DNA of 41,363 bases from a virus. Position 1 is the stretch's first letter; each line of letters starts with the position of its first letter. Shown here in pieces: positions 9,662 to 25,692 of the stretch. The stretch lies in IMG/VR virus record IMGVR_UViG_3300045988_121266; one strand, 5' to 3'. The notes beneath the pieces were generated by a model. It was not told where the DNA came from. It saw only the letters and a list, made by a program, of their open reading frames with translations, and ran no database searches. The translations under genes were made by a program, and so were the position numbers.

Positions 9662-12661
9662 ATGGCAGAGTCGTATAGTGTAAAAGCAATATTATCAGCG
9701 CAGGACAAAAACTTTTCATCCATTATGAAATCATGCCAGGGATATGCAAATAATCTGAAAACTACTCTCACCGGCGGTCTTGGATTTGGTGCAATGGCTG
9801 CAATCGGCGGGAAGGCGATGTCGCTGGTGACAAATTCAGTCAGTGATTTGTCGAAAGAGACGATAGAAACATCGGATTCCATGTATAAGTTGCAGGCAGC
9901 TATGAGATTTTCCGGGTATTCCGAAGCGGAAATACAGAGAATAGCCGGAGCAACAGGTACATTAAAAACATATGCAGATAAAACAGTATTCTCCCTGCAG
10001 GATGTTATGGGTACATTCGGCTCACTTTCGGCAAATGGAATCAAAGACGCAGACAAGTTGACGGAAGCAGTCGGTAATGCAGTTGCTGTATTTGGTGGAG
10101 GTGCAAAGGAATATTCCTCGGTAGCACTTGCGTTTTCACAGGCAATGGCGGCAGGAGCTTTACATGCTCAGGATTGGAACCAGATCATTAATGCCAGTCC
10201 GCAGCTTGCTGGAGGCTTACGGAAAGAGCTGATTAAGCTGAATCCAACATTAGGGAACGACTTCAAAGGAGCAATGGAAAAGGGTGCAATTACCGCAGAC
10301 ATGCTCGGACAGGCTATCAATAACATTGGTATGACTGACATGGCGAAAGAAGCAGCCACATCCGTAACAACATTTGAAGGTGCTATGGGTAACTTAGAGG
10401 CATCTGCAGTAAGCGGAATGATGAAGCTTTATGATACTTTCGCAAAGCCTAAAGTGATTGATTCAATCAATGGGATGACCGGTAAGGTGGAGGCGGGATT
10501 TGACAAATTGTCCGTTGGAATTCCAAAAGCAATCGAACTTATATCTCCATACTGGAACGTGCTGAAAACAGATGCAAAAGAGGTAGGGACAGCCTTTGGA
10601 GAGGCAGCTGGTGCGATTATTGACGAAGTACAGGAACTTACCGGAGCATTTGGAAAAAAGGAAAGTGTGGATAATTTCTCTGAAAGCATGGGAACAGCAA
10701 CAGATGCATTAACTACATTTGCGGATTTTCTAAAAGATCATGATAAAGAAGTGGCAAAAGCAATTACGCTGTTACCGAAATTATATGTTGCTTTTAAAGG
10801 CTTTAAAATAGTCAGTGCAATCGCCCCTGGTGTCAAAACTTTTGCGGGCGCAATTGTAAGCATGACAGGAAAAGGAATAGCGACGCTGGCAGGTAAGTTA
10901 TTTGGCGTAGCAGCGGGTGAAAAAGCGGTAGGCACTGCAAGTAAAGAATCATCAGGGACTATCGTAGAATCAGCAAAAGCATTTGTAGCGATCGGAGCAG
11001 GAGTAGCATTGATTGCAGCAGGATTTTCCCTTTTGGCATATTCAGCCGTGCAAATCGCACAAGCTGGACCACTGGCAGCAGGAGTACTGATCGGCATGAC
11101 GGTTGCAGTGGCAGGCTTAATGGTTGTTGCCAAAAATGTGGCGCCGGCTATGACGGTCGGAGCAACCGGATTCATTGCCTTTGGTGCGGCTGTCCTGATA
11201 GCGGCAGCGGGGATTGCTGTATTATCACTGGCGGCTGTTAATCTGGCGAATGCGGGACCGCTTGCTATAGGCTGTATGGTTGGTATGGTTGCGGCAATTG
11301 CCGGACTTGCCCTTGGCGCAGCAGCACTAGGACCGGCATTGACAGCCGGAGCAGTAGGTCTCGTTGCCTTTGGTGTAGCTATATTACTGGTTTCAACCGG
11401 AGCACTGCTGGCAAGTGTTGGGCTTGCCATAGTAGCAGGTGTGCTTCCGACCATTGTGCAATATGGAATTCAGGGAGCGGCTTGCATCGCAACTCTCGGA
11501 GCAGGCATGATCGTATTTGGCGCTGGGGCTGCAGTAGCCGGAGCGGGATGCATTGTCCTTGGTGCCGGACTTGTAGTGGTAGGTGCCGGACTTACGGTGG
11601 TTGGTGCAGCTGTCCTGATTGCGGCAGCGGGTGTGTTGCTTCTGGCAGCAGGAGCACTTGCCCTTGGCGCCGGTCTTACGGTAGCTGGGGCAGGACTTCT
11701 GTTGATGGGAGCTGCATTCCCTGCTGTATCATCCGGAGCTTTAGCAACGGTAGGAGCACTGACAGCCTTAACAGCATTATCATTAGGTCTTGCGGCTGGA
11801 ATGGGAGCATCGGCTGTTGTAGTGGTAGCATTTGGAGCTGCTATGGCAGGCGGCGCAGTTGGCACCCTTGCAATGGTGGTAGCATTAAAGTCTGTTAATT
11901 CAAGCATGAAATCAATTGCATCCAATGCGAAGAGTGCTCAGAGCTCTTTAACAAGTATGAGATCCAGTGTGAACGTAGTGAATGCAGGACTGGATGCACT
12001 GGGAAGTAAGGCAAAATCTGCTATCAATGCGCTGATCAGTCAATTTACAAATGCAGAAGGAAAGGCAAAAAGCTCTGGTAATGCAGTTGGAAATAATTTT
12101 AATAGTGGAGTGTCAAGTGGCATGAGTCGCGCAGTATCTACGGCAAGATCCATGTCTGCGTCTACAGTATCAGCCATGAGATCAGCTGGATCCGGTTCAT
12201 ACAGTTGCGGTGTATATATAGGAGCTGGTCTTGCAAATGGTATGGCAAGTCAGGTTGGGCGTGTAAGATCTGTTGCGGCGCAGTTGGCAGCTGCAGCAGA
12301 GGCGGCAATTGTAGCAAAAGCTAAGATTGGAAGTCCGTCCAAGGTTACTCATAAACTGGGCGGCTATTTCGGTGAAGGATGGGTAAATGGAATTTCTGAT
12401 AGGGTCACAGATGCGAAAAAGGCAGTATGGAAACTGGTAGACATTCCGGATTTAGTTCCTGTTCCGGAAATTGGAGCTGGATTAAGAATCGGCATCGAAG
12501 ATTTGAATGATGATTATGACTACACCAGAAACGAAACCTATACCATTTACGTCCCTGTTGAAGTAGATGGCCGGCAGGTGGCAAAGGCAACGGCGAAATA
12601 CACCAAAGAAGAAATTGAACAGCAGCAGAAAAGAGATCTTCGAAAGAAAGGCATGAGATAA
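9662..12661 (+). CDS. Tail tape measure protein
   Basis: 999 aa. The N-terminal tape-measure domain pattern is FSLQDVMGTFGSLSANGIKDADKLTEAVGNAVAVFGGG...AQDWNQIINASPQLAGGLRKEL. A very long Gly/Ala/Val/Leu hydrophobic core follows. Position is after the G/GT pair. Confidence 0.95.
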   Translation: MAESYSVKAILSAQDKNFSSIMKSCQGYANNLKTTLTGGLGFGAMAAIGGKAMSLVTNSVSDLSKETIETSDSMYKLQAAMRFSGYSEAEIQRIAGATGTLKTYADKTVFSLQDVMGTFGSLSANGIKDADKLTEAVGNAVAVFGGGAKEYSSVALAFSQAMAAGALHAQDWNQIINASPQLAGGLRKELIKLNPTLGNDFKGAMEKGAITADMLGQAINNIGMTDMAKEAATSVTTFEGAMGNLEASAVSGMMKLYDTFAKPKVIDSINGMTGKVEAGFDKLSVGIPKAIELISPYWNVLKTDAKEVGTAFGEAAGAIIDEVQELTGAFGKKESVDNFSESMGTATDALTTFADFLKDHDKEVAKAITLLPKLYVAFKGFKIVSAIAPGVKTFAGAIVSMTGKGIATLAGKLFGVAAGEKAVGTASKESSGTIVESAKAFVAIGAGVALIAAGFSLLAYSAVQIAQAGPLAAGVLIGMTVAVAGLMVVAKNVAPAMTVGATGFIAFGAAVLIAAAGIAVLSLAAVNLANAGPLAIGCMVGMVAAIAGLALGAAALGPALTAGAVGLVAFGVAILLVSTGALLASVGLAIVAGVLPTIVQYGIQGAACIATLGAGMIVFGAGAAVAGAGCIVLGAGLVVVGAGLTVVGAAVLIAAAGVLLLAAGALALGAGLTVAGAGLLLMGAAFPAVSSGALATVGALTALTALSLGLAAGMGASAVVVVAFGAAMAGGAVGTLAMVVALKSVNSSMKSIASNAKSAQSSLTSMRSSVNVVNAGLDALGSKAKSAINALISQFTNAEGKAKSSGNAVGNNFNSGVSSGMSRAVSTARSMSASTVSAMRSAGSGSYSCGVYIGAGLANGMASQVGRVRSVAAQLAAAAEAAIVAKAKIGSPSKVTHKLGGYFGEGWVNGISDRVTDAKKAVWKLVDIPDLVPVPEIGAGLRIGIEDLNDDYDYTRNETYTIYVPVEVDGRQVAKATAKYTKEEIEQQQKRDLRKKGMR

Positions 12662-19014: not shown

Positions 19015-19029
19015 GACATATTATATAGT

Positions 19030-19043
19030 GTGCGACGTCGCAC
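19030..19043. promoter_or_regulatory. Copy B of the recurrent palindrome (GTGCGACGTCGCAC, perfect)
   Basis: It directly abuts AGAAAGGAG, the RBS of the endolysin gene, and is preceded by TTATATAGT. Confidence 0.5.
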
Positions 19044-19057
19044 AGAAAGGAGCAATT

Positions 19058-20410
19058 ATGGCACATTTATTTATTATAGCCGGACACGGAGCCGGTGACA
19101 GTGGAGCAGTTGGATACGGCTATACAGAGGCAGAGAGAGTCCGGGCACTTGCAAGACGAATCGTAGCATACGGAGGAAGTAATGTTACTCTTGGAGATAC
19201 AAACCGGAACTGGTATGCCGACAAAGGCATTAGCTCACTCAATATTCCAAAAAGCTATCAGATCTTGGAGCTTCACATGGACAGCGGAGTAGCTATGGCA
19301 AAAGGCGGTCACGTAATCATCAAGGAAGGATACTCTCCAGATCAGTATGATACAGCACTCGCCAACTTCATCGGTTCATTCTTCCCTGGCAGAGCAAATA
19401 AGGTAGTAGGCAGAGCGCATCTTGCCAACGTCAATCGTGCAGCTGCAAAAGGTTACAGCTATAGACTTCTGGAAAATGGATTCATTACAAACCAGGGAGA
19501 TCTCAACAAATTCAATTCCAAGATCGATGACTTGGCAAGAGGGATCCTCAAAGCATTCGGAATCACGTCTGCAGCACCAGTAGCATCAGTCAAGAAGACA
19601 GAACCTGTCGATGGAGAGATCAAGTCCGGTGGAGTATTCCAGAGCAAGACGGATAAGTTTGGTACAATCTCATATCAGGCTCACATGAGAAGTGCTGGCT
19701 GGGGAGCTTGGCAGTCTGACGGATTAATGGTCGGTTCAACAAACCAGAATCGCCGGATCGAAGCACTGCACATCCAGCCGGTCGGAGAAACAGATGTTGT
19801 TGTCCATATGAAAGGAATCGGAAACAAAGAATACAAGAACATTACCAAAGACACGCTGATCGGAACCACCGGACAGAACAGAAGACTGGAAGCAATCCGG
19901 ATCACCGGAAAGGAATCTTTCTACCTGTACAGAGTCCACCAGAAGAGTATTGGCTGGTCAGAATGGGCCAACAACGGAGAGTGGGCTGGTACGACCGGAA
20001 AAGGTCTGCAGATGGAAGCACTGGAGATTAAGAAATCCATGTTTTCAGTCGAGCCACACGTACAGAGCAAAGGCTGGTTGTCACCAAGAGCCGCAGAGAA
20101 TGTGATCGGTATCACCGGCCATGCATTACGTCTGGAAGCACTCAGAATCAACCCATACGGAAAGACGATCAAAGCGAAAGCACACATCCAGAGCAAAGGC
20201 TGGGTGGATTACGGCACGATCACCAAAGATACGATCATCGGTACAGTTGGAGAAAAGAAACGTATTGAGTGCTTATGTTTCGAAGGCGACTTCGAATACC
20301 GTGTTCATATCCAGAGTTCCGGATGGACAGACTGGACAAGAGCCGATGGAGTAGCTACTCTTGGAACTGTAGGACAGGAACTTAGAATCGAGGCTATTCA
20401 ATTTAGATGA
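19058..20410 (+). CDS. Endolysin: N-acetylmuramoyl-L-alanine amidase with six C-terminal ChW cell-wall-binding repeats
   Basis: The N-terminus HLFIIAGHGAGDSGAVGYGYTE...ELHMDSG...YRLLENGFITNQGDL is Amidase_3-like. From 19667 there are six repeats of the pattern Y-x-hHhQs-GW--W---G---GT-G---RhEAh-I (ChW). The ORF is open from GTG 19028, but ATG 19058 follows AAAGGAG. Confidence 0.9.
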   Translation: MAHLFIIAGHGAGDSGAVGYGYTEAERVRALARRIVAYGGSNVTLGDTNRNWYADKGISSLNIPKSYQILELHMDSGVAMAKGGHVIIKEGYSPDQYDTALANFIGSFFPGRANKVVGRAHLANVNRAAAKGYSYRLLENGFITNQGDLNKFNSKIDDLARGILKAFGITSAAPVASVKKTEPVDGEIKSGGVFQSKTDKFGTISYQAHMRSAGWGAWQSDGLMVGSTNQNRRIEALHIQPVGETDVVVHMKGIGNKEYKNITKDTLIGTTGQNRRLEAIRITGKESFYLYRVHQKSIGWSEWANNGEWAGTTGKGLQMEALEIKKSMFSVEPHVQSKGWLSPRAAENVIGITGHALRLEALRINPYGKTIKAKAHIQSKGWVDYGTITKDTIIGTVGEKKRIECLCFEGDFEYRVHIQSSGWTDWTRADGVATLGTVGQELRIEAIQFR

Positions 20411-20448: not shown

Positions 20449-20500
20449 ACTTTATAGGTTATAGCAAAAAGGTCAACCAAATTGTTATAACCTATAAAGT
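20449..20500. other. Candidate attP core for the serine integrase
   Basis: Perfect 15-bp inverted arms, ACTTTATAGGTTATA (20449-20463) and TATAACCTATAAAGT (20486-20500), flank a 22-bp spacer. The spacer has further symmetry (GGT-CA-ACC) around a non-palindromic central CA at 20474-20475. The 52-bp total lies in the 128-bp gap next to the 3' end of int. Confidence 0.5.
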
Positions 20501-20503
20501 ATA

Positions 20504-20532
20504 CGCAAACCCTTGATTTTACTGGGTTTGCG
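20504..20532. terminator. Stem-loop between the convergent endolysin and integrase genes (probable bidirectional terminator)
   Basis: CGCAAACCC-11 nt-GGGTTTGCG forms a perfect 9-bp stem with T/A-rich flanks on both sides. Confidence 0.55.
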
Positions 20533-20538
20533 GGCATT

Positions 20539-22020
20539 TTACCTGTATAAGAAAAAGTAGATTTTAAGAGAATCGTTCTTGCGATCGTAGATAATCTTGT
20601 CGATGATCTGCTTCAGGGCTTCGTTCTTTTGAATGTATGTATAATTGTTGGAGATGAGAATATCATATACACTCCGGACCTTCTGAAGCATAGCATCCGC
20701 TGGATCCTGATCGGATTTACGAGCTGCCTTTTTCAATTCCTTTAATTGTTGTTCTAAGGATTCCCGTTCTTTCTGAATGATAGCTTTATTCGCTTTATAT
20801 TCTTCCAGTGTATCAATCCCTTCCCGGTAGGAGGCTTTTATTCGTTCCTCTTTGCCGGTTAAACTTTCCAAATGTTCTGTTATAGCCTTGCGCTCATCAA
20901 ACTGCTCTGTGGGTTGATATTCACGCAATTCATAGACAATATCTTTGGTATCCAATATTTCTTTGATACTGGCCAGAACTTCCTTCTCAAGGACCAGTGA
21001 GCTGATGCCGTTCGGCTTTTTACATTTACCTTTACTGTATCCGTAGCAGGAGAAGTAAGAATATTTTTCCCCATTGACTCGTTTCATAGTGGTTGAGGTT
21101 AGGGTGCGTCCGCAATCCGGGCATTTCAGCAGTCCGGAGAGCCAGTGCTTATAAGTGGAAGAGGGACGCTTGCCAACCGGCTTGTAGGTGGCTTTAAATC
21201 GTTTCTGCGCTGATTCAAAGAGTTCCTTTGATATGATAGCCGGCTGTTGTCCTTCTGTAACAATCCATTCGTCCTTATCTTTGATACGATTAGTGCTGTT
21301 CTCTGTCCGGTTCCACCGGATCATGCCACAATAGGAAGGATTCTGGATGATATATTCGACAGATCTTCGCTCAAATGGCTTTCCGTGCGAAGTCTTGAGC
21401 CCTAAAGAATTTAGGTATCTGGCGATATCAAAGAAGCTCATGCCTTCATTTGTGTATTTTTCGAATATAGTCCGAACAATCTTTGCTTCTTCCGGAACAA
21501 TCACCGGCGGCTTGCCATGCTCCACAACTTTGTAGCCGAGTGGTGGACGCGCCTGGTATGCTCCGCGGAGTGCATTTTCTTTCATGCCTCGATACACTTC
21601 GCCAGATAATCGGATAGAGTAATATTCATCCATCCACTCGATTATACGCTCGATCAGGCTGCCAAAAGGATTGTCGGAGAGTGGCTCGGACACACTCACG
21701 ACATCTACATTGTGCTGTTTTTTTAAAAGAGACTTGTATACGATGGATTCTTCCTGATTCCGGGCAAATCGTGAAAACTTCCATACCAGGATCAGATCGA
21801 CTGGACGGTCATCACCTTTGGCCAGTGCGATCATCTCCTGAAAGCCGGGACGCTTGTTGGCTTTTCTTCCGGAGATACCTAGGTCCGTGAAGATCTTCAG
21901 GATTACAATATTGTTCTTGGCTGCATAGTCCCGGAGGAGATGCTCCTGGGAGTCCGGGGAGATCTCTTCCTGATCATGAGTGGATACCCGGATGTAGCCG
22001 TATGCATATTTTACGCTCAT
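20539..22020 (-). CDS. Large serine recombinase (phage integrase)
   Basis: 493 aa. The N-terminal resolvase catalytic domain is YGYIRVSTHDQE...GISGRKANKRPGFQEM...LILVWKFSRFARN. It also has a recombinase domain, a zinc ribbon (CPDCGRTL...YFSCYGYSKGKCK) and a C-terminal coiled coil. Confidence 0.95.
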   Translation of the reverse strand: MSVKYAYGYIRVSTHDQEEISPDSQEHLLRDYAAKNNIVILKIFTDLGISGRKANKRPGFQEMIALAKGDDRPVDLILVWKFSRFARNQEESIVYKSLLKKQHNVDVVSVSEPLSDNPFGSLIERIIEWMDEYYSIRLSGEVYRGMKENALRGAYQARPPLGYKVVEHGKPPVIVPEEAKIVRTIFEKYTNEGMSFFDIARYLNSLGLKTSHGKPFERRSVEYIIQNPSYCGMIRWNRTENSTNRIKDKDEWIVTEGQQPAIISKELFESAQKRFKATYKPVGKRPSSTYKHWLSGLLKCPDCGRTLTSTTMKRVNGEKYSYFSCYGYSKGKCKKPNGISSLVLEKEVLASIKEILDTKDIVYELREYQPTEQFDERKAITEHLESLTGKEERIKASYREGIDTLEEYKANKAIIQKERESLEQQLKELKKAARKSDQDPADAMLQKVRSVYDILISNNYTYIQKNEALKQIIDKIIYDRKNDSLKIYFFLYR

Positions 22021-22044
22021 TGTATCACCTTCCTGTAATTATAT

Positions 22045-22058
22045 GTGCGACATCGCAC
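22045..22058. promoter_or_regulatory. Copy C of the recurrent palindrome (GTGCGACATCGCAC), upstream of int
   Basis: On the minus strand it reads tttttGTGCGATGTCGCACaTATAATtacAGGAAGGTGatacaATG. The palindrome abuts a perfect TATAAT -10 hexamer upstream of the integrase RBS. Confidence 0.5.
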
Positions 22059-22246
22059 AAAAATGGGTACAAAAATAACACCTATGCAGGTGCCAGGGAA
22101 ATGTGATATAATACTCTTGTTCACGGAATGTTATATCGTGCCTTGGCACTGTATAGTATTCAAAGATAGAGGCTCTGGTGCTGGTAACACCGGGGCTTCT
22201 GTTGTTTTATTGTGGATAACGTAAAAACATATATTTTTACGATTTA

Positions 22247-22822
22247 TTAATGATCTGCTAGAGACAGCACATTTGCCGTATATAAATTTATTCCAGAGAA
22301 TGTGGTAAAATCATTGTCATCAGAGATAATATTGGTATGGTTAGTAGAAACACAATTATCTAAGATAACATAATCAAAAGGATCGCATCTGTGTGCAGAG
22401 AAAGTATTTGTAAAATTTTTGAGTTTTGAATTTGTAAAATTAAAATCTAAAATCTTGCAAATAGCAGTAGCGTTATTTAAAGTTGTATGTAAGATGTTCT
22501 GTAATTTTTTTCTTTCCACAGAATCCTTTCGATAATCTTTAGGGGTATAATGGCAGTTAGGATTTGTAGCCAGAAAAATGGCAAACTCATTTTTCTCAAT
22601 TATATTTAATAATTCTGAAATATTGTAAACAGAGGTGCATAATGGGTTACCGTCAGATACTAATCTATCTACGAAATCATAATATGGTTTTGCCTGATAT
22701 TCCACACTTTTTTTTGTGAGACCATAACGTGGATAAACATACCAATAGAGAACGTTTGTATCCAAGAAATATTCTTTTGAATTATTAATGGAAGAGAAGG
22801 AATTAATATCTATAATATTCAT
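22247..22822 (-). CDS. PIN-domain nuclease-like protein (third gene of the GHKL/STAS/PIN cassette)
   Basis: 191 aa with acidic PIN-type motifs: YFLDTNVLYWY (N-terminal Asp), NISELLNIIEK (Glu) and NIISDDNDFTTF (C-terminal Asp cluster). Its ATG is 2 nt after the upstream stop, and its RBS GGTGGA lies inside the upstream gene. Confidence 0.65.
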   Translation of the reverse strand: MNIIDINSFSSINNSKEYFLDTNVLYWYVYPRYGLTKKSVEYQAKPYYDFVDRLVSDGNPLCTSVYNISELLNIIEKNEFAIFLATNPNCHYTPKDYRKDSVERKKLQNILHTTLNNATAICKILDFNFTNSKLKNFTNTFSAHRCDPFDYVILDNCVSTNHTNIISDDNDFTTFSGINLYTANVLSLADH

Positions 22823-22824
22823 AA

Positions 22825-23172
22825 TTATTCCACCTTTTTTGGAGCATTGTTAATGATTTTATCAATTTCGGAAGAAAACTCTGGATTTTCATATATTAGT
22901 TTAGCGTTATCAACCGAGGTCTTATATGTGCTTTTTCCAGTATCAGTTATATTTAATAATTCGATTTTTTCAAGCAAATCAAATCCATAAACAAGCCCTA
23001 ATGAAGCAAAGCTGTTGTTAAAAAAAGGTGAAGCAAAACGTTTGATACCATCAAAGTCAACAGATATTTCTTCCCCGCTTTTGAGTGCTTCTTCAATTAG
23101 GTGTTTTAATACAGCTCCCTTTGTTCTTGAAGCTGCTTCGTTTGTGAAAGACGATAATTTAATTGTGCTCAT
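22825..23172 (-). CDS. STAS-like (DUF4325-type) small protein
   Basis: 115 aa. GAVLKHLIEEALKSGEEISVDFDGIKRFASPFFNNSFASL matches the DUF4325 / anti-sigma-antagonist-like pattern (V-lDF-GV---sSF-de-F). The RBS is AGGAGG. Confidence 0.65.
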   Translation of the reverse strand: MSTIKLSSFTNEAASRTKGAVLKHLIEEALKSGEEISVDFDGIKRFASPFFNNSFASLGLVYGFDLLEKIELLNITDTGKSTYKTSVDNAKLIYENPEFSSEIDKIINNAPKKVE

Positions 23173-23190
23173 AAATTATTCCTCCTTATT

Positions 23191-24087
23191 TTAAATAGTG
23201 TATATATGATCATAATCAGCAATAATTGTGATACCGATAAACGTTCCCATAGAGGGAAAAGACAAATGTTCAAAATTAGATGTAGCATTGTATTGATAGT
23301 ATATATCGTTAGATAAAATATTTAAAGAGCCGTCATTTAGACGAATGAAGTCTTGCAGGTCAGATAAACCAAGACCGCGTGGAATACCACTAAGCAGTTG
23401 CTTAGTTGAATTTCCTCGCTTGAGGGCCCATTCAAGAGCAGATTTTGATGACATTGTATTATCAATTTTTTCTTTTATTAATGCGGGAATGCCGACACCC
23501 GTATCATAAACAGAAAAAGAAAGATATTTTTTCTGTGGCATCCAATGCCCACATGCATAAACTCCATGATTTGCACGAGAGTGATCGACTGAATTATTAA
23601 ATATTTCGTAAATATTCTTAAATAAAACTTCATGCCCTTGTTCTGTTAGTTGGATAGGTGCAAGCTCAAGAATATTGTCAATGTATTCGATAATACTCGA
23701 ATCATCTTTTAAATCGATGGATGCAAATGGTATAGCATTCCTGTTAGAATGAATATCTGGTTGCTTCATAATATGATCATACAAACCGGAATTATAAAAA
23801 TATTCACTTAGTTTACTGTTTTTAGAAGTTTGATATTTAATAGTTTTACCAAATGAAGCACCGATATACGCTAAAGCACCAAGGTACGATGTGAAAATAG
23901 CATGACTAAATCTACAATGTGTAAAGTCAAGGATAATAGTTGTTTCGTTAGAATCAATTAAATCGTTTTGTACTTTGGATAAAAATTTATACGTATCGGC
24001 GTTGTTGTTTAATGAAATCGGAAATATGATACGTTCCGCCATAAAATCATTCCTCGTTTCTTTGGCTATATACAATAGATTTTCCAC
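23191..24087 (-). CDS. GHKL (HATPase_c) ATPase / RsbW-SpoIIAB-like kinase-fold protein with an N-terminal STAS-like region
   Basis: The ORF is 298 aa. The probable start is ATG 24042, 7 nt after GAGGAA, giving 283 aa. Motifs are the N-box YEIFNNSVDHS (aa 160-170), the G1 box VYDTGVGIP (aa 193-201) and the G2 box GIPRGLGLSDL (aa 234-244). The N-terminal segment TTIILDFTHCRFSHAIFTSYLGAL is STAS-like. Confidence 0.7.
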   Translation of the reverse strand: MENLLYIAKETRNDFMAERIIFPISLNNNADTYKFLSKVQNDLIDSNETTIILDFTHCRFSHAIFTSYLGALAYIGASFGKTIKYQTSKNSKLSEYFYNSGLYDHIMKQPDIHSNRNAIPFASIDLKDDSSIIEYIDNILELAPIQLTEQGHEVLFKNIYEIFNNSVDHSRANHGVYACGHWMPQKKYLSFSVYDTGVGIPALIKEKIDNTMSSKSALEWALKRGNSTKQLLSGIPRGLGLSDLQDFIRLNDGSLNILSNDIYYQYNATSNFEHLSFPSMGTFIGITIIADYDHIYTI

Positions 24088-24096
24088 TATACAAAT

Positions 24097-24489
24097 TTAT
24101 TTCATCTGCACCTTCTGCATCAATGCTTCCTGGAGCACCTGCGAGAAGTTAAGTCCCATAGCAGTAGCGGACTCATTCAACCATTCAGGAATGGTGAGTG
24201 TCTTTTTAACAGCTTTCGAACTATGCTTCTTCAGATATGCAAATAAATCAAACTCAATGACAACAAGAAAACCATCATCAACTTTAAGTTCGCTGATATC
24301 TGTAGGATCAGGAATTACTTCCTTTTCTTTCTGTCTGCTTGTGACCGCAAGTCCTAATGCGTCAACGGCATTTTCGTATGCTTGCTGCATATCATCCCCG
24401 TCGGAAAAACATTCCGGGAAATCCGGGAAAGAGATCCAGAACCCGCCGTCTTCTTTATGAAAAATTGCCGGATAAAATAATCTGTTCAT
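24097..24489 (-). CDS. hicB: HicB-family antitoxin
   Basis: MNRLFYPAIFHKEDGGFWISFPDFPECFSDGDDMQQAYENAVDALGLAV is the typical HicB N-terminal fold sequence. ATG 24489 is 7 nt after GGAGGT, and the ORF is open from 24504. Confidence 0.85.
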   Translation of the reverse strand: MNRLFYPAIFHKEDGGFWISFPDFPECFSDGDDMQQAYENAVDALGLAVTSRQKEKEVIPDPTDISELKVDDGFLVVIEFDLFAYLKKHSSKAVKKTLTIPEWLNESATAMGLNFSQVLQEALMQKVQMK

Positions 24490-24528
24490 ACACGATACCT
24501 CCATAATATTTTATTTGTGCCGGCAGGA

Positions 24529-24717
24529 CTATTTAAGCCCCGCCTGTTTTAATATTGCCTGTTCCAAACCTTTTTTCAAGTCTTTGGAGTGATAAGGAAC
24601 AATTACTGTTCTACCAGTTTCCGGATTCATCAGTTTTACATGTGAGCCATTCTGACTAACTACGATGAAACCGTTTTTCTTGAGAAGTTTAATCATCTCT
24701 TTTGGTGTTAATGGCAT
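24529..24717 (-). CDS. hicA: HicA-family mRNA interferase toxin
   Basis: 62 aa. MPLTPKEMIKLLKKNGFIVVSQNGSHVKLMNPETGRTVIVPYHSKDLKKGLEQAILKQAGL is a typical HicA (YcfA-like) sequence. It lies upstream of hicB. Confidence 0.9.
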   Translation of the reverse strand: MPLTPKEMIKLLKKNGFIVVSQNGSHVKLMNPETGRTVIVPYHSKDLKKGLEQAILKQAGLK

Positions 24718-24756
24718 CTTTTGTATCTCCTTTCCTTATCATGATTACATTATAGC

Positions 24757-24801
24757 ACGTGTTAACACGTATGTCAAGCAAATATGTATAAATACGTATT
24801 T
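24757..24801. promoter_or_regulatory. Divergent control region with two perfect palindromes
   Basis: ACGTGTTAACACGT (24757-24770, 14 bp) and AAATACGTATTT (24790-24801, 12 bp) lie between hicA (-) and the XRE gene (+). Confidence 0.45.
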
Positions 24802-24838
24802 TGCGTATAAAATAATTGAAATGTAACATACTAATATC

Positions 24839-25036
24839 ATGAAGATATTACTAGACAAAATAATGTATGATAAACATCTGACCATTCGTCAGCCCTCTAT
24901 CCTTACAGGTGTCCCAAAATCGACAATAGCTGATATCGCATCTGGAAAGATTAGTCCACGACTGGACACACTGGAACAGTTAGCAAAGAGGCTAAATGTT
25001 CGAATTACTGACTTATTTGAGGCGGATATTAAATAA
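24839..25036 (+). CDS. XRE-family helix-turn-helix transcriptional regulator
   Basis: 65 aa. The HTH is LTIRQPSILTGVPKSTIADIASGKISPRLDTLEQLAKRLNVRITDLF. No obvious SD is present, so the mRNA may be leaderless or weakly translated. Confidence 0.8.
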   Translation: MKILLDKIMYDKHLTIRQPSILTGVPKSTIADIASGKISPRLDTLEQLAKRLNVRITDLFEADIK

Positions 25037-25161
25037 GTGTCTGAGCATCCGGACAAATTTATTTATGTGTCTTTTTAAATCGTATTGAATATGATACAAT
25101 ATTCTTGTTGAGGGAGTACTGTATCGAGCGAATCCTTCGCCGTATATATTACTCGGGATTT

Positions 25162-25195
25162 CCCCGGTGTTTGATAGGCACCGGGGATTTTTTAT
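25162..25195 (+). terminator. Rho-independent terminator
   Basis: TCCCCGGTG-9 nt-CACCGGGGA forms a 9-bp stem followed by TTTTTTAT. It sits between the XRE gene and the convergent lipoprotein gene. Confidence 0.75.
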
Positions 25196-25206
25196 ATTAC
25201 ACTATT

Positions 25207-25692
25207 TTATTGTCCTGTAGCAACGCTTGTGTATGCATCCTGCACTTGCTGTGCCTGGGTGGTGTACACTTCTTGCAATTTTCCTGCCCATTCATTGTAG
25301 GTATCATCACTGTCACCATTTTTTAATTTGATTTCAGCCATTTTACTAACACCTTCGTTACAGATTGTAGCCAGTTTTTCGACTTTTGTGTTACAAAGTT
25401 CTGCAAGAGCATTTACGTCACCGTTTTTCTCAGGAGCTTCTGTATTGAATTCATCAACAACACCTGGAGTTGCTTCAGTAATTTTCTGAGTATATTCATC
25501 CAGAATACTCTGATACGTAGTTTCTTCTGACTGATCAGCCGAAGAATCATCAGAAGAAGTATCAGATTTTGCTGTTTCCTCTGTTTTAGTGTCGGACTTA
25601 GAACTTGAAGAATCAGATCCAGATCCTCCACAAGCAGATAATGACAATGCCATAGATGATGCCAGTAATAATGCTACGATTTTCTTTTTCAT
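25207..25692 (-). CDS. Secreted lipoprotein (prophage-expressed; candidate exclusion/conversion factor)
   Basis: The signal peptide with lipobox is MKKKIVALLLASSMALSLSAC. A Ser/Asp/Thr-rich linker follows, then a helical domain. Confidence 0.85.
   Translation of the reverse strand: MKKKIVALLLASSMALSLSACGGSGSDSSSSKSDTKTEETAKSDTSSDDSSADQSEETTYQSILDEYTQKITEATPGVVDEFNTEAPEKNGDVNALAELCNTKVEKLATICNEGVSKMAEIKLKNGDSDDTYNEWAGKLQEVYTTQAQQVQDAYTSVATGQ

Follow-up and report, generated by a model that had tools for sequence, protein, structure and literature searches.

A temperate phage of Dorea-type Lachnospiraceae carries a copy of the vapKSC operon beside its serine integrase

IMG/VR virus record IMGVR_UViG_3300045988_121266, a stretch of 41,363 nucleotides that we call the window at its full length, contains three co-directional minus-strand genes for a GHKL-type kinase, a STAS protein and a PIN-domain nuclease. 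An earlier note on this DNA, made from the letters alone, had not recognised the triad as a named defence system and had listed a match to a characterised system as evidence against its proposal; such a match is what we found. From matches to Protein Data Bank (PDB) entry 9Z7O and an alignment of the kinase, the triad is a phage-borne copy of the known vapKSC system and not a new one. All three proteins are homologous to their vapKSC counterparts, the residues mutated in the published system are kept, the operon architecture is widely conserved and the operon lies in a prophage. As the note had read them, the genes are tightly packed, with gaps of exactly 18 nt (23173..23190) and 2 nt (22823..22824).

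23191..24042, minus strand: vapK, a 283-amino-acid (aa) kinase with an N-terminal STAS-like domain (about residues 1-110) and a GHKL domain
22825..23172, minus strand: vapS, a 115-aa STAS (DUF4325) antitoxin with a short C-terminal region
22247..22822, minus strand: vapC, a 191-aa PIN-domain nuclease toxin

Homology to the Escherichia vapKSC system

The vapKSC system was described by Chambers, Rani, Min, Villa and Corbett (EMBO J 2026, PMC13373217; bioRxiv February 2026), the source of 9Z7O, as a three-gene operon of Escherichia sp. E4736 encoding a CapK-like STAS and GHKL protein (VapK), a STAS protein (VapS) and a PIN nuclease (VapC). VapS and VapC crystallised as a 2:2 complex. Ser48 of VapS lies buried where the two proteins meet, and the C-terminal helix of VapS comes close to the active site. 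VapC is toxic and its D28A mutant is not; VapS neutralises VapC without VapK, whereas VapS lacking its C-terminal region (deltaC) and VapS S48E fail to do so, S48E having lost co-purification with VapC. The operon conferred about 2 logs of protection against phage Bas42, which was lost in the VapC D28A, VapS S48A and VapK F54A mutants (PMC13373217).

Searched alone against the PDB, the product of gene 3 matched Escherichia VapC (9z7o_C, E 2.9e-14, residues 2-185) and that of gene 2 matched Escherichia VapS (9z7o_A, E 4.4e-7, with the alignment reaching residue 110). Family profiles that include the window proteins extended both matches to full length, at E 1.2e-62 for VapC and E 9.8e-36 for VapS (positions 2-114). 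Window VapS reaches residue 115 and covers the short C-terminal region needed for inhibition in Escherichia (residues 94-116). It also gave the only firm single-sequence Pfam match among the three genes (DUF4325, STAS-like, E 1.1e-11), so that the DUF4325/STAS assignment of gene 2 made from the sequence holds, as does that of gene 3 to the PIN domains, given its PDB match and the acidic residues described below. NCBIfam returned only sub-threshold GyrB/histidine-kinase and PIN matches for the cassette proteins.

For gene 1, a single-sequence PDB search gave no useful match. The Escherichia VapK sequence (residues 1-286) was taken from the supplementary AlphaFold 3 mmCIF file of PMC13373217; no VapK structure is deposited. 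By BLASTP the two kinases share 28% identity over 267 aa (109 bits), with common N-box (EIFNNS in the window, EIYANS in Escherichia), G1 (DTGVGIP and DFGVGIP) and G2 (PRGLGL) motifs and an identical FTHCRF motif that places window F45 at Escherichia F54. A VapK family profile that includes the window protein matched the CheA and histidine-kinase ATP-binding (GHKL) domains in the PDB. An AlphaFold 2 model built from 64 homologues was of high predicted quality (predicted local distance difference test 87.8, predicted template modelling score 0.88). In Foldseek searches its C-terminal part resembled CheA P4, Topo VI-B and SpoIIAB (template modelling score (TM) 0.66-0.69 on the target) and its N-terminal part STAS domains, among them the RsbV homologue TM1442 and the SulP STAS domain (root mean square deviation 2.8-3.8 A). 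The GHKL fold and STAS-like N-terminal part that the note had read from motifs are thus borne out by the model.

The gene 1 open reading frame (ORF; 23191..24087) encodes 298 aa from GTG 24087 and 283 aa from ATG 24042. Its roughly 120 close homologues are mostly 283-285 aa long and an identical 283-aa product is on record; therefore ATG 24042 is the start, as the note had thought probable. GAGGA (24051..24055), 8 nt before this ATG, is the Shine-Dalgarno sequence of vapK, and both homologue lengths and this ribosome-binding site led us to reject the GTG start. A second Shine-Dalgarno sequence, AAGGAGG (23181..23187), precedes vapS.

Every residue mutated by Chambers et al. is kept in the window, VapC D28 as D21, VapS S48 as S48 and VapK F54 as F45. 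The positions concerned, with the GHKL motifs of VapK, are:

22760..22762, minus strand: codon of VapC Asp21, the predicted catalytic residue in FLDTNV, aligned with Escherichia D28
23029..23031, minus strand: codon of VapS Ser48, the predicted phospho-acceptor in FASPFFN
23908..23910, minus strand: codon of VapK F45, an aromatic residue at the putative single-stranded DNA (ssDNA)-binding site
23593..23595, minus strand: codon of VapK N150 in the E146/N150 N-box, a GHKL motif
within vapK, minus strand: G1 box D180-x-G-x-G and G2 box G223-x-G225, GHKL motifs

The equivalents of VapC D28, VapS S48, VapK F54 and the N-box Asn are nearly invariant across 65-82 homologues. VapC residues D21, E70, D147, D150, D168, D169 and D171 are invariant in 80-81 of 82 sequences, consistent with the catalytic role that the note had given to the Asp of FLDTNV. 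Window VapS S48 aligns with chain residue 66 of 9z7o_A, which is native Escherichia S48 after an 18-residue tag, and its column holds S in 74, T in 4 and A in 1 of 79 sequences. This serine had been singled out as a candidate phospho-site, and it is the equivalent of the residue tested in Escherichia through S48A and S48E (PMC13373217). In VapK, E146, N150, D180, G182, G184, G223 and G225 are invariant in 65-67 ungapped homologues, and the F45 column is F in 56 and Y in 4 of 63 ungapped sequences.

The window operon and the Escherichia type system are therefore alike in gene order (K-S-C), domains and sizes (283, 115 and 191 aa in the window; at least 286, 116 and 203 aa in Escherichia), in the retention of all mutated residues and in the full-length profile matches to the crystallised VapS and VapC; the published catalogue also includes Lachnospiraceae and Dorea members. 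They differ in that the window copy belongs to a temperate phage whose host is a Gram-positive gut anaerobe, lies directly between a hicAB pair and a serine integrase, may be transcribed from the hicA promoter and is only 26-28% identical to the Escherichia proteins.

Two further groups resemble parts of the operon. VapBC type II toxin-antitoxin systems likewise pair a PIN-domain VapC bearing conserved acidic residues with a small neutralising protein encoded directly upstream, in an overlapping or abutting gene. The vapKSC antitoxin, in contrast, is a STAS (DUF4325) protein rather than a DNA-binding VapB of the AbrB, RHH, MerR or Phd type; VapS leaves the active-site Mg2+ in place, and release is by phosphorylation, not by antitoxin proteolysis (PMC13373217). 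The coupling of PIN and DUF4325 genes was recorded in 2017 as group 'PIN.4', of unknown function (Matelska et al., NAR, PMC5499597). Going by the description of that group only, PIN.4 fits the window family, although no function was assigned there and the kinase was not noted.

Distribution and phage carriage

We scanned one genome per GTDB species, anchoring the search on the PIN protein and keeping the best 80 loci. These span Lachnospiraceae, cyanobacteria, Pseudomonas, Acinetobacter, Desulfobacterota, Chlorobia, Chloroflexota and methanogenic archaea. A VapS homologue lies directly upstream of the PIN gene in 78 of the 80 loci, the remaining two ending at a contig edge, and a VapK homologue lies upstream of VapS in 68, three more ending at a contig edge before the VapK position. 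Among 13 IMG/VR viral contigs with the PIN family, 12 hold the complete triad. The order K-S-C with abutting S and C genes recurs in 65-68 of the 80 genome loci and in 12 of the 13 viral loci, with S-C gaps of typically -4 to +3 nt across the family. Co-occurrence of the three genes outside this phage, which the note had proposed as a check, is therefore the rule.

Names shared between the catalogue of PMC13373217 (Dataset EV3) and our scan include Lachnospiraceae bacterium A4, Lachnospiraceae bacterium B54_54_AM_H, Pseudomonas sp. GM84, Acinetobacter tjernbergiae DSM 14971 and a Desantisbacteria genome. The catalogue further has an entry for Dorea longicatena BIOML-A7 (gene IDs 2923823617-19). 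The viral contig IMGVR_UViG_2923822619_000002 encodes VapK and VapC that are 100% identical to those of the window and matches window positions 20471..25199 at 98.8%; the gene IDs fall just after IMG taxon ID 2923822619, that of the genome behind this contig. By its gene numbering, an essentially identical copy thus appears to be in Dataset EV3 already. We rejected the idea that the window and IMGVR_UViG_2923822619_000002 are the same contig: only 20471..25199 matches and the flanks diverge.

That stretch, the integrase-vapKSC-hicAB block (20471..25199), is 98-99% identical to two IMG/VR contigs (L086 and L087), whereas the adjoining lysogeny-control region (25.2-27 kb) matches them only in patches, at 91-95%. 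This contrast suggests that related phages have swapped the block as a module (mosaic exchange). Another prophage has a VapK 82% identical to that of the window; its genes run from the S24 repressor through an unknown 339-aa gene and vapKSC to the serine recombinase and then host genes. The order vapC then serine recombinase is found again in loci L006, L012 and L100-L102, with a recombinase identity of 43-47% in L006 and L012. Other Lachnospiraceae loci have only the triad in common with the window phage. The vapKSC cassette is the mobile unit, and it lands preferentially at the lysogeny/integrase end of prophages. Phage carriage of vapKSC is never discussed in PMC13373217.

Related arrangements were seen in GenBank phages. 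In Streptococcus phage Javan172 (MK448860.1; L003:4251-4781), one ORF, which overlaps the STAS gene at its end, matches the VapC profile (E 5.6e-10) and has the motifs FIVDTNVW and SHDNDF, its pairwise match to window VapC being weak (E 0.004); the record annotates only a 39-aa coding sequence inside this ORF. Javan172 probably carries a complete, mis-annotated vapKSC beside its integrase. Two-gene modules of a VapK-like STAS and GHKL gene with a short DUF4325/STAS-like gene are present in Burkholderia phage vB_E188 (PQ789830.1; L004:2959-4166) and Streptococcus phage Javan132 (MK448850.1; L005:2536-3734), the latter pair also occurring in phages Javan140, Javan39, LYGO9 and phiGBSVK. In vB_E188 and Javan132 the kinase-like protein is about 300 aa and the STAS-like protein 98-99 aa with the motif V(P/S)SSFVNSAF; the modules lie at prophage ends, and no PIN gene was found within the stretch searched. 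The VapK-like gene of Javan132 is annotated 'ABC-type ... permease component'.

Genomic setting and expression

The window holds portal, head, tape-measure, tail-fibre and endolysin genes and an ImmA-like metalloprotease gene, and is therefore a temperate tailed phage, of Lachnospiraceae (Dorea-type). At the DNA level it has a single relative among GenBank phages, Dorea phage DO134P1, which matches part of the head region at 79%; a megablast of the cassette locus against GenBank phages gave no match. The cassette is flanked upstream by hicA and hicB and downstream by a serine integrase, which bears out the integrase-proximal position behind hicAB described in the note. It is also, as described there, more AT-rich than its surroundings, with a GC content of 0.31-0.33 over 22-24 kb against about 0.42-0.45 in most of the phage backbone. 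The integrase next door marks vapKSC as cargo of the lysogeny/integration module.

24749..24777, minus strand: promoter-like TTGACA-17-TATAAT (12/12, with TG; perfect sigma-70 consensus) just before hicA, the best site of the scan
24529..24717, minus strand: hicA (Pfam HicA_toxin, E 4.8e-23)
24097..24504, minus strand: hicB (Pfam HicB_lk_antitox, E 1.3e-11)
22829..22834, minus strand: vapC ribosome-binding site GGTGGA, inside the vapS 3' end and 6 nt before the vapC ATG
22076..22095, minus strand: terminator-like hairpin and T-run downstream of vapC, before the integrase gene
20539..22020, minus strand: large serine recombinase (phage integrase; PHROG phrog_95 integrase, E 2.5e-127), directly downstream of vapC

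The scan showed no terminator-like site on the minus strand from hicA to vapC. With a perfect promoter before hicA and no such site until after vapC, a single five-gene hicA-hicB-vapK-vapS-vapC transcript from the hicA promoter is therefore plausible. The note's own promoter for the cassette, TTGTAT-16-TATATA, is present in the sequence, but its -35 hexamer matches at only 3/6 positions, it is absent from the scan list, and promoter-like sites in this AT-rich region are no commoner than in shuffles (18 versus 15.7 +/- 3.9). The consensus site upstream of hicA looks the better promoter candidate. The position of GGTGGA inside vapS agrees with the note's reading and suggests translational coupling of vapC to vapS.

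Of 93 loci, only three have hicAB next to vapKSC: two carry the same module as the window, and L012 has a diverged form. We therefore rejected hicA and hicB as fourth and fifth components of vapKSC; they form a type II toxin-antitoxin pair that adjoins the system without belonging to it.

Proposed mechanism and alternative explanations

We consider it likely that the cassette is a toxin-antitoxin-like anti-phage operon, carried as lysogeny-module cargo of a temperate Dorea/Lachnospiraceae phage, and that it works as in the Escherichia type system. VapC would be a Mg2+-dependent PIN RNase toxin, held in an inactive VapS2-VapC2 complex in which the STAS domain of VapS binds VapC with Ser48 buried in the interface and the C-terminal region beside the active site. 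VapK, which has a STAS-like domain of its own at the N-terminus, would act as a GHKL serine kinase of the SpoIIAB/RsbW kind. Once switched on by ssDNA arising in DNA damage or phage replication, it would phosphorylate VapS Ser48, so that phospho-VapS would leave VapC. Free VapC would then cleave RNA, arrest the cell and abort the infection. In a lysogen, vapKSC would thereby shield the host, and hence the prophage, from superinfecting phages. For the window locus we infer all of the biochemical steps, the RNA target and the role in superinfection exclusion from the type system.

Several points weigh against this account. Even in the type system the ssDNA trigger and the kinase activity are inferred: VapK was insoluble, and ssDNA binding, activation by ssDNA and kinase activity rest on AlphaFold 3 models, analogy with the biochemically studied relative CapK and mutant phenotypes (PMC13373217). 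Defence by Escherichia vapKSC was shown against one phage, in E. coli only (PMC13373217). The low identity between the window and Escherichia proteins also counts against it, as do single-sequence Pfam scores just under the gathering score for VapK (HATPase_c, 21.6 bits against 26.4) and VapC (PIN, 23.1 bits against 23.6). PADLOC v2.0.0, a check that the note had proposed, has no model for vapKSC and gave no system-level match; the GHKL part of VapK drew weak matches to DrmA of DISARM (E 1.1e-5, model positions 101-257 of 1750) and SspC (E 0.009). Finally, a toxin activated by DNA damage or ssDNA on a temperate phage should fire at the prophage's own induction too, and its trigger or timing may differ here.

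The note's overall idea, a kinase-controlled nuclease serving as a prophage-borne abortive-infection or defence module, fits homologous vapKSC, but the wiring it proposed is inverted. It had the ATPase holding the PIN nuclease in check, in the manner of classical partner switching, in which the GHKL protein would sequester the nuclease as SpoIIAB or RsbW does a sigma factor and unphosphorylated STAS protein would displace it. The parts list is the same as in the SpoIIAB-SpoIIAA-sigmaF and RsbW-RsbV-sigmaB modules, namely a kinase domain with the SpoIIAB-like GHKL serine kinase fold and a STAS partner or substrate with a conserved phospho-Ser. In those modules, however, the output protein is a binding partner of the kinase, and a PP2C phosphatase returns the switch to its starting state, whereas in vapKSC the STAS protein binds the output VapC and the kinase has an extra STAS-like sensor domain. 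In the homologous system the crystal structure and pull-downs place VapS, not VapK, on VapC with Ser48 in the interface, the kinase would free VapC by phosphorylating VapS, and VapS neutralises VapC toxicity without VapK (PMC13373217). There is no PP2C-type phosphatase gene in the operon, and of the flanking genes examined (hicAB and the integrase) none is a phosphatase. We therefore regard partner switching of this kind as very unlikely. A transcriptional switch of the CapK/CapS type, in which the STAS protein would repress the downstream gene by binding DNA and the kinase would de-repress it after DNA damage, has next to no probability in our judgement. VapK and VapS are related to CapK and CapS (PMC13373217), DNA-damage-responsive regulators of CBASS, Bil and Bub operons that likewise pair a GHKL kinase containing an internal STAS domain with a STAS substrate bearing a conserved phospho-serine, and for which ssDNA is the proposed activating signal. 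CapS represses transcription through a C-terminal winged helix and CapK has an N-terminal helix-turn-helix; the 115-aa window VapS lacks the former, the VapK model opens with a STAS strand at residue 3 and lacks the latter, and the VapS family profile misses the CapS structures (9Z71-73) at E <= 1. For these reasons the window triad is vapKSC and not capKS. The downstream gene is, moreover, a PIN toxin that homologous VapS binds as a protein, so the output would be a nuclease inhibited by protein-protein contact and not a promoter.

A different question is whom the circuit serves. The same parts might stabilise the prophage as an addiction module, or shut off host RNA on DNA damage during the phage's own induction. 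The cassette lies between the lysogeny regulators and the integrase, beside the hicAB toxin-antitoxin pair, other prophages use the same slot, and the published trigger, DNA damage or ssDNA, also induces many prophages. On the other side, the type system protected a heterologous host without prophage context, 36% of the 289 catalogued vapKSC operons lie within 10 kb of other defence genes (PMC13373217), and most genomic copies share only the triad with the window phage, so that the cassette is not tied to one phage life cycle. We hold a role of this kind to be unlikely, and anti-phage defence by the type-system mechanism remains our reading of the cassette. Somewhat more room, though still well short of an even chance, should be left for a circuit wired differently in the temperate phage than in the chromosomal type system: a five-gene hicAB-vapKSC toxin cluster expressed from one strong promoter in the lysogeny module and tuned so that the phage's own DNA-damage induction either fails to set off VapC or uses it deliberately for host shut-off.

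Other features of the window

A compositional island of the opposite sign to the AT-rich vapKSC block lies at 10500..12500, inside the 999-aa tape-measure gene (9662..12661), where GC content rises to 0.50-0.54 and AT skew is negative. The endolysin gene (19028..20410, plus strand) encodes an N-terminal amidase-like part (PHROG endolysin matches, residues about 10-200) and a C-terminal half of about six repeats of a ~45-residue unit (…GW..W…G(T/S)(T/V)G…RR(L/I)EA(L/I)…) that is presumably cell-wall-binding. In the lysogeny region, the product of a 161-aa ORF (25207..25692, minus strand) has a lipoprotein-type signal at its start (MKKKIVALLLASSMALSLSAC-GGSG) and, after it, a Ser/Asp-rich linker. 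The ORF may encode a prophage surface lipoprotein, a class often involved in superinfection exclusion.

Implications

As a system, vapKSC offers nothing new here: its architecture, toxin-antitoxin core structure, key residues and defence phenotype were published in 2026. Annotation resources miss or mislabel it, among them PADLOC v2.0.0, single-sequence Pfam thresholds and GenBank phage records. Window VapK belongs to PHROG phrog_3364 (E 1.6e-48, function 'unknown'), so that phage databases hold the VapK family without a name.

Two points are mildly new: vapKSC is found repeatedly as cargo in gut Lachnospiraceae prophages, between their repressor and serine integrase, and probably also in Streptococcus phage Javan172; and in the window it may share a transcript with hicAB. 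The prophage context raises the question of how a toxin triggered by DNA damage or ssDNA can coexist with a prophage when DNA damage induces that prophage as well. Should the circuit prove to be differently wired in the phage, vapKSC would be a phage-owned superinfection-exclusion or induction device and not a host immune gene.

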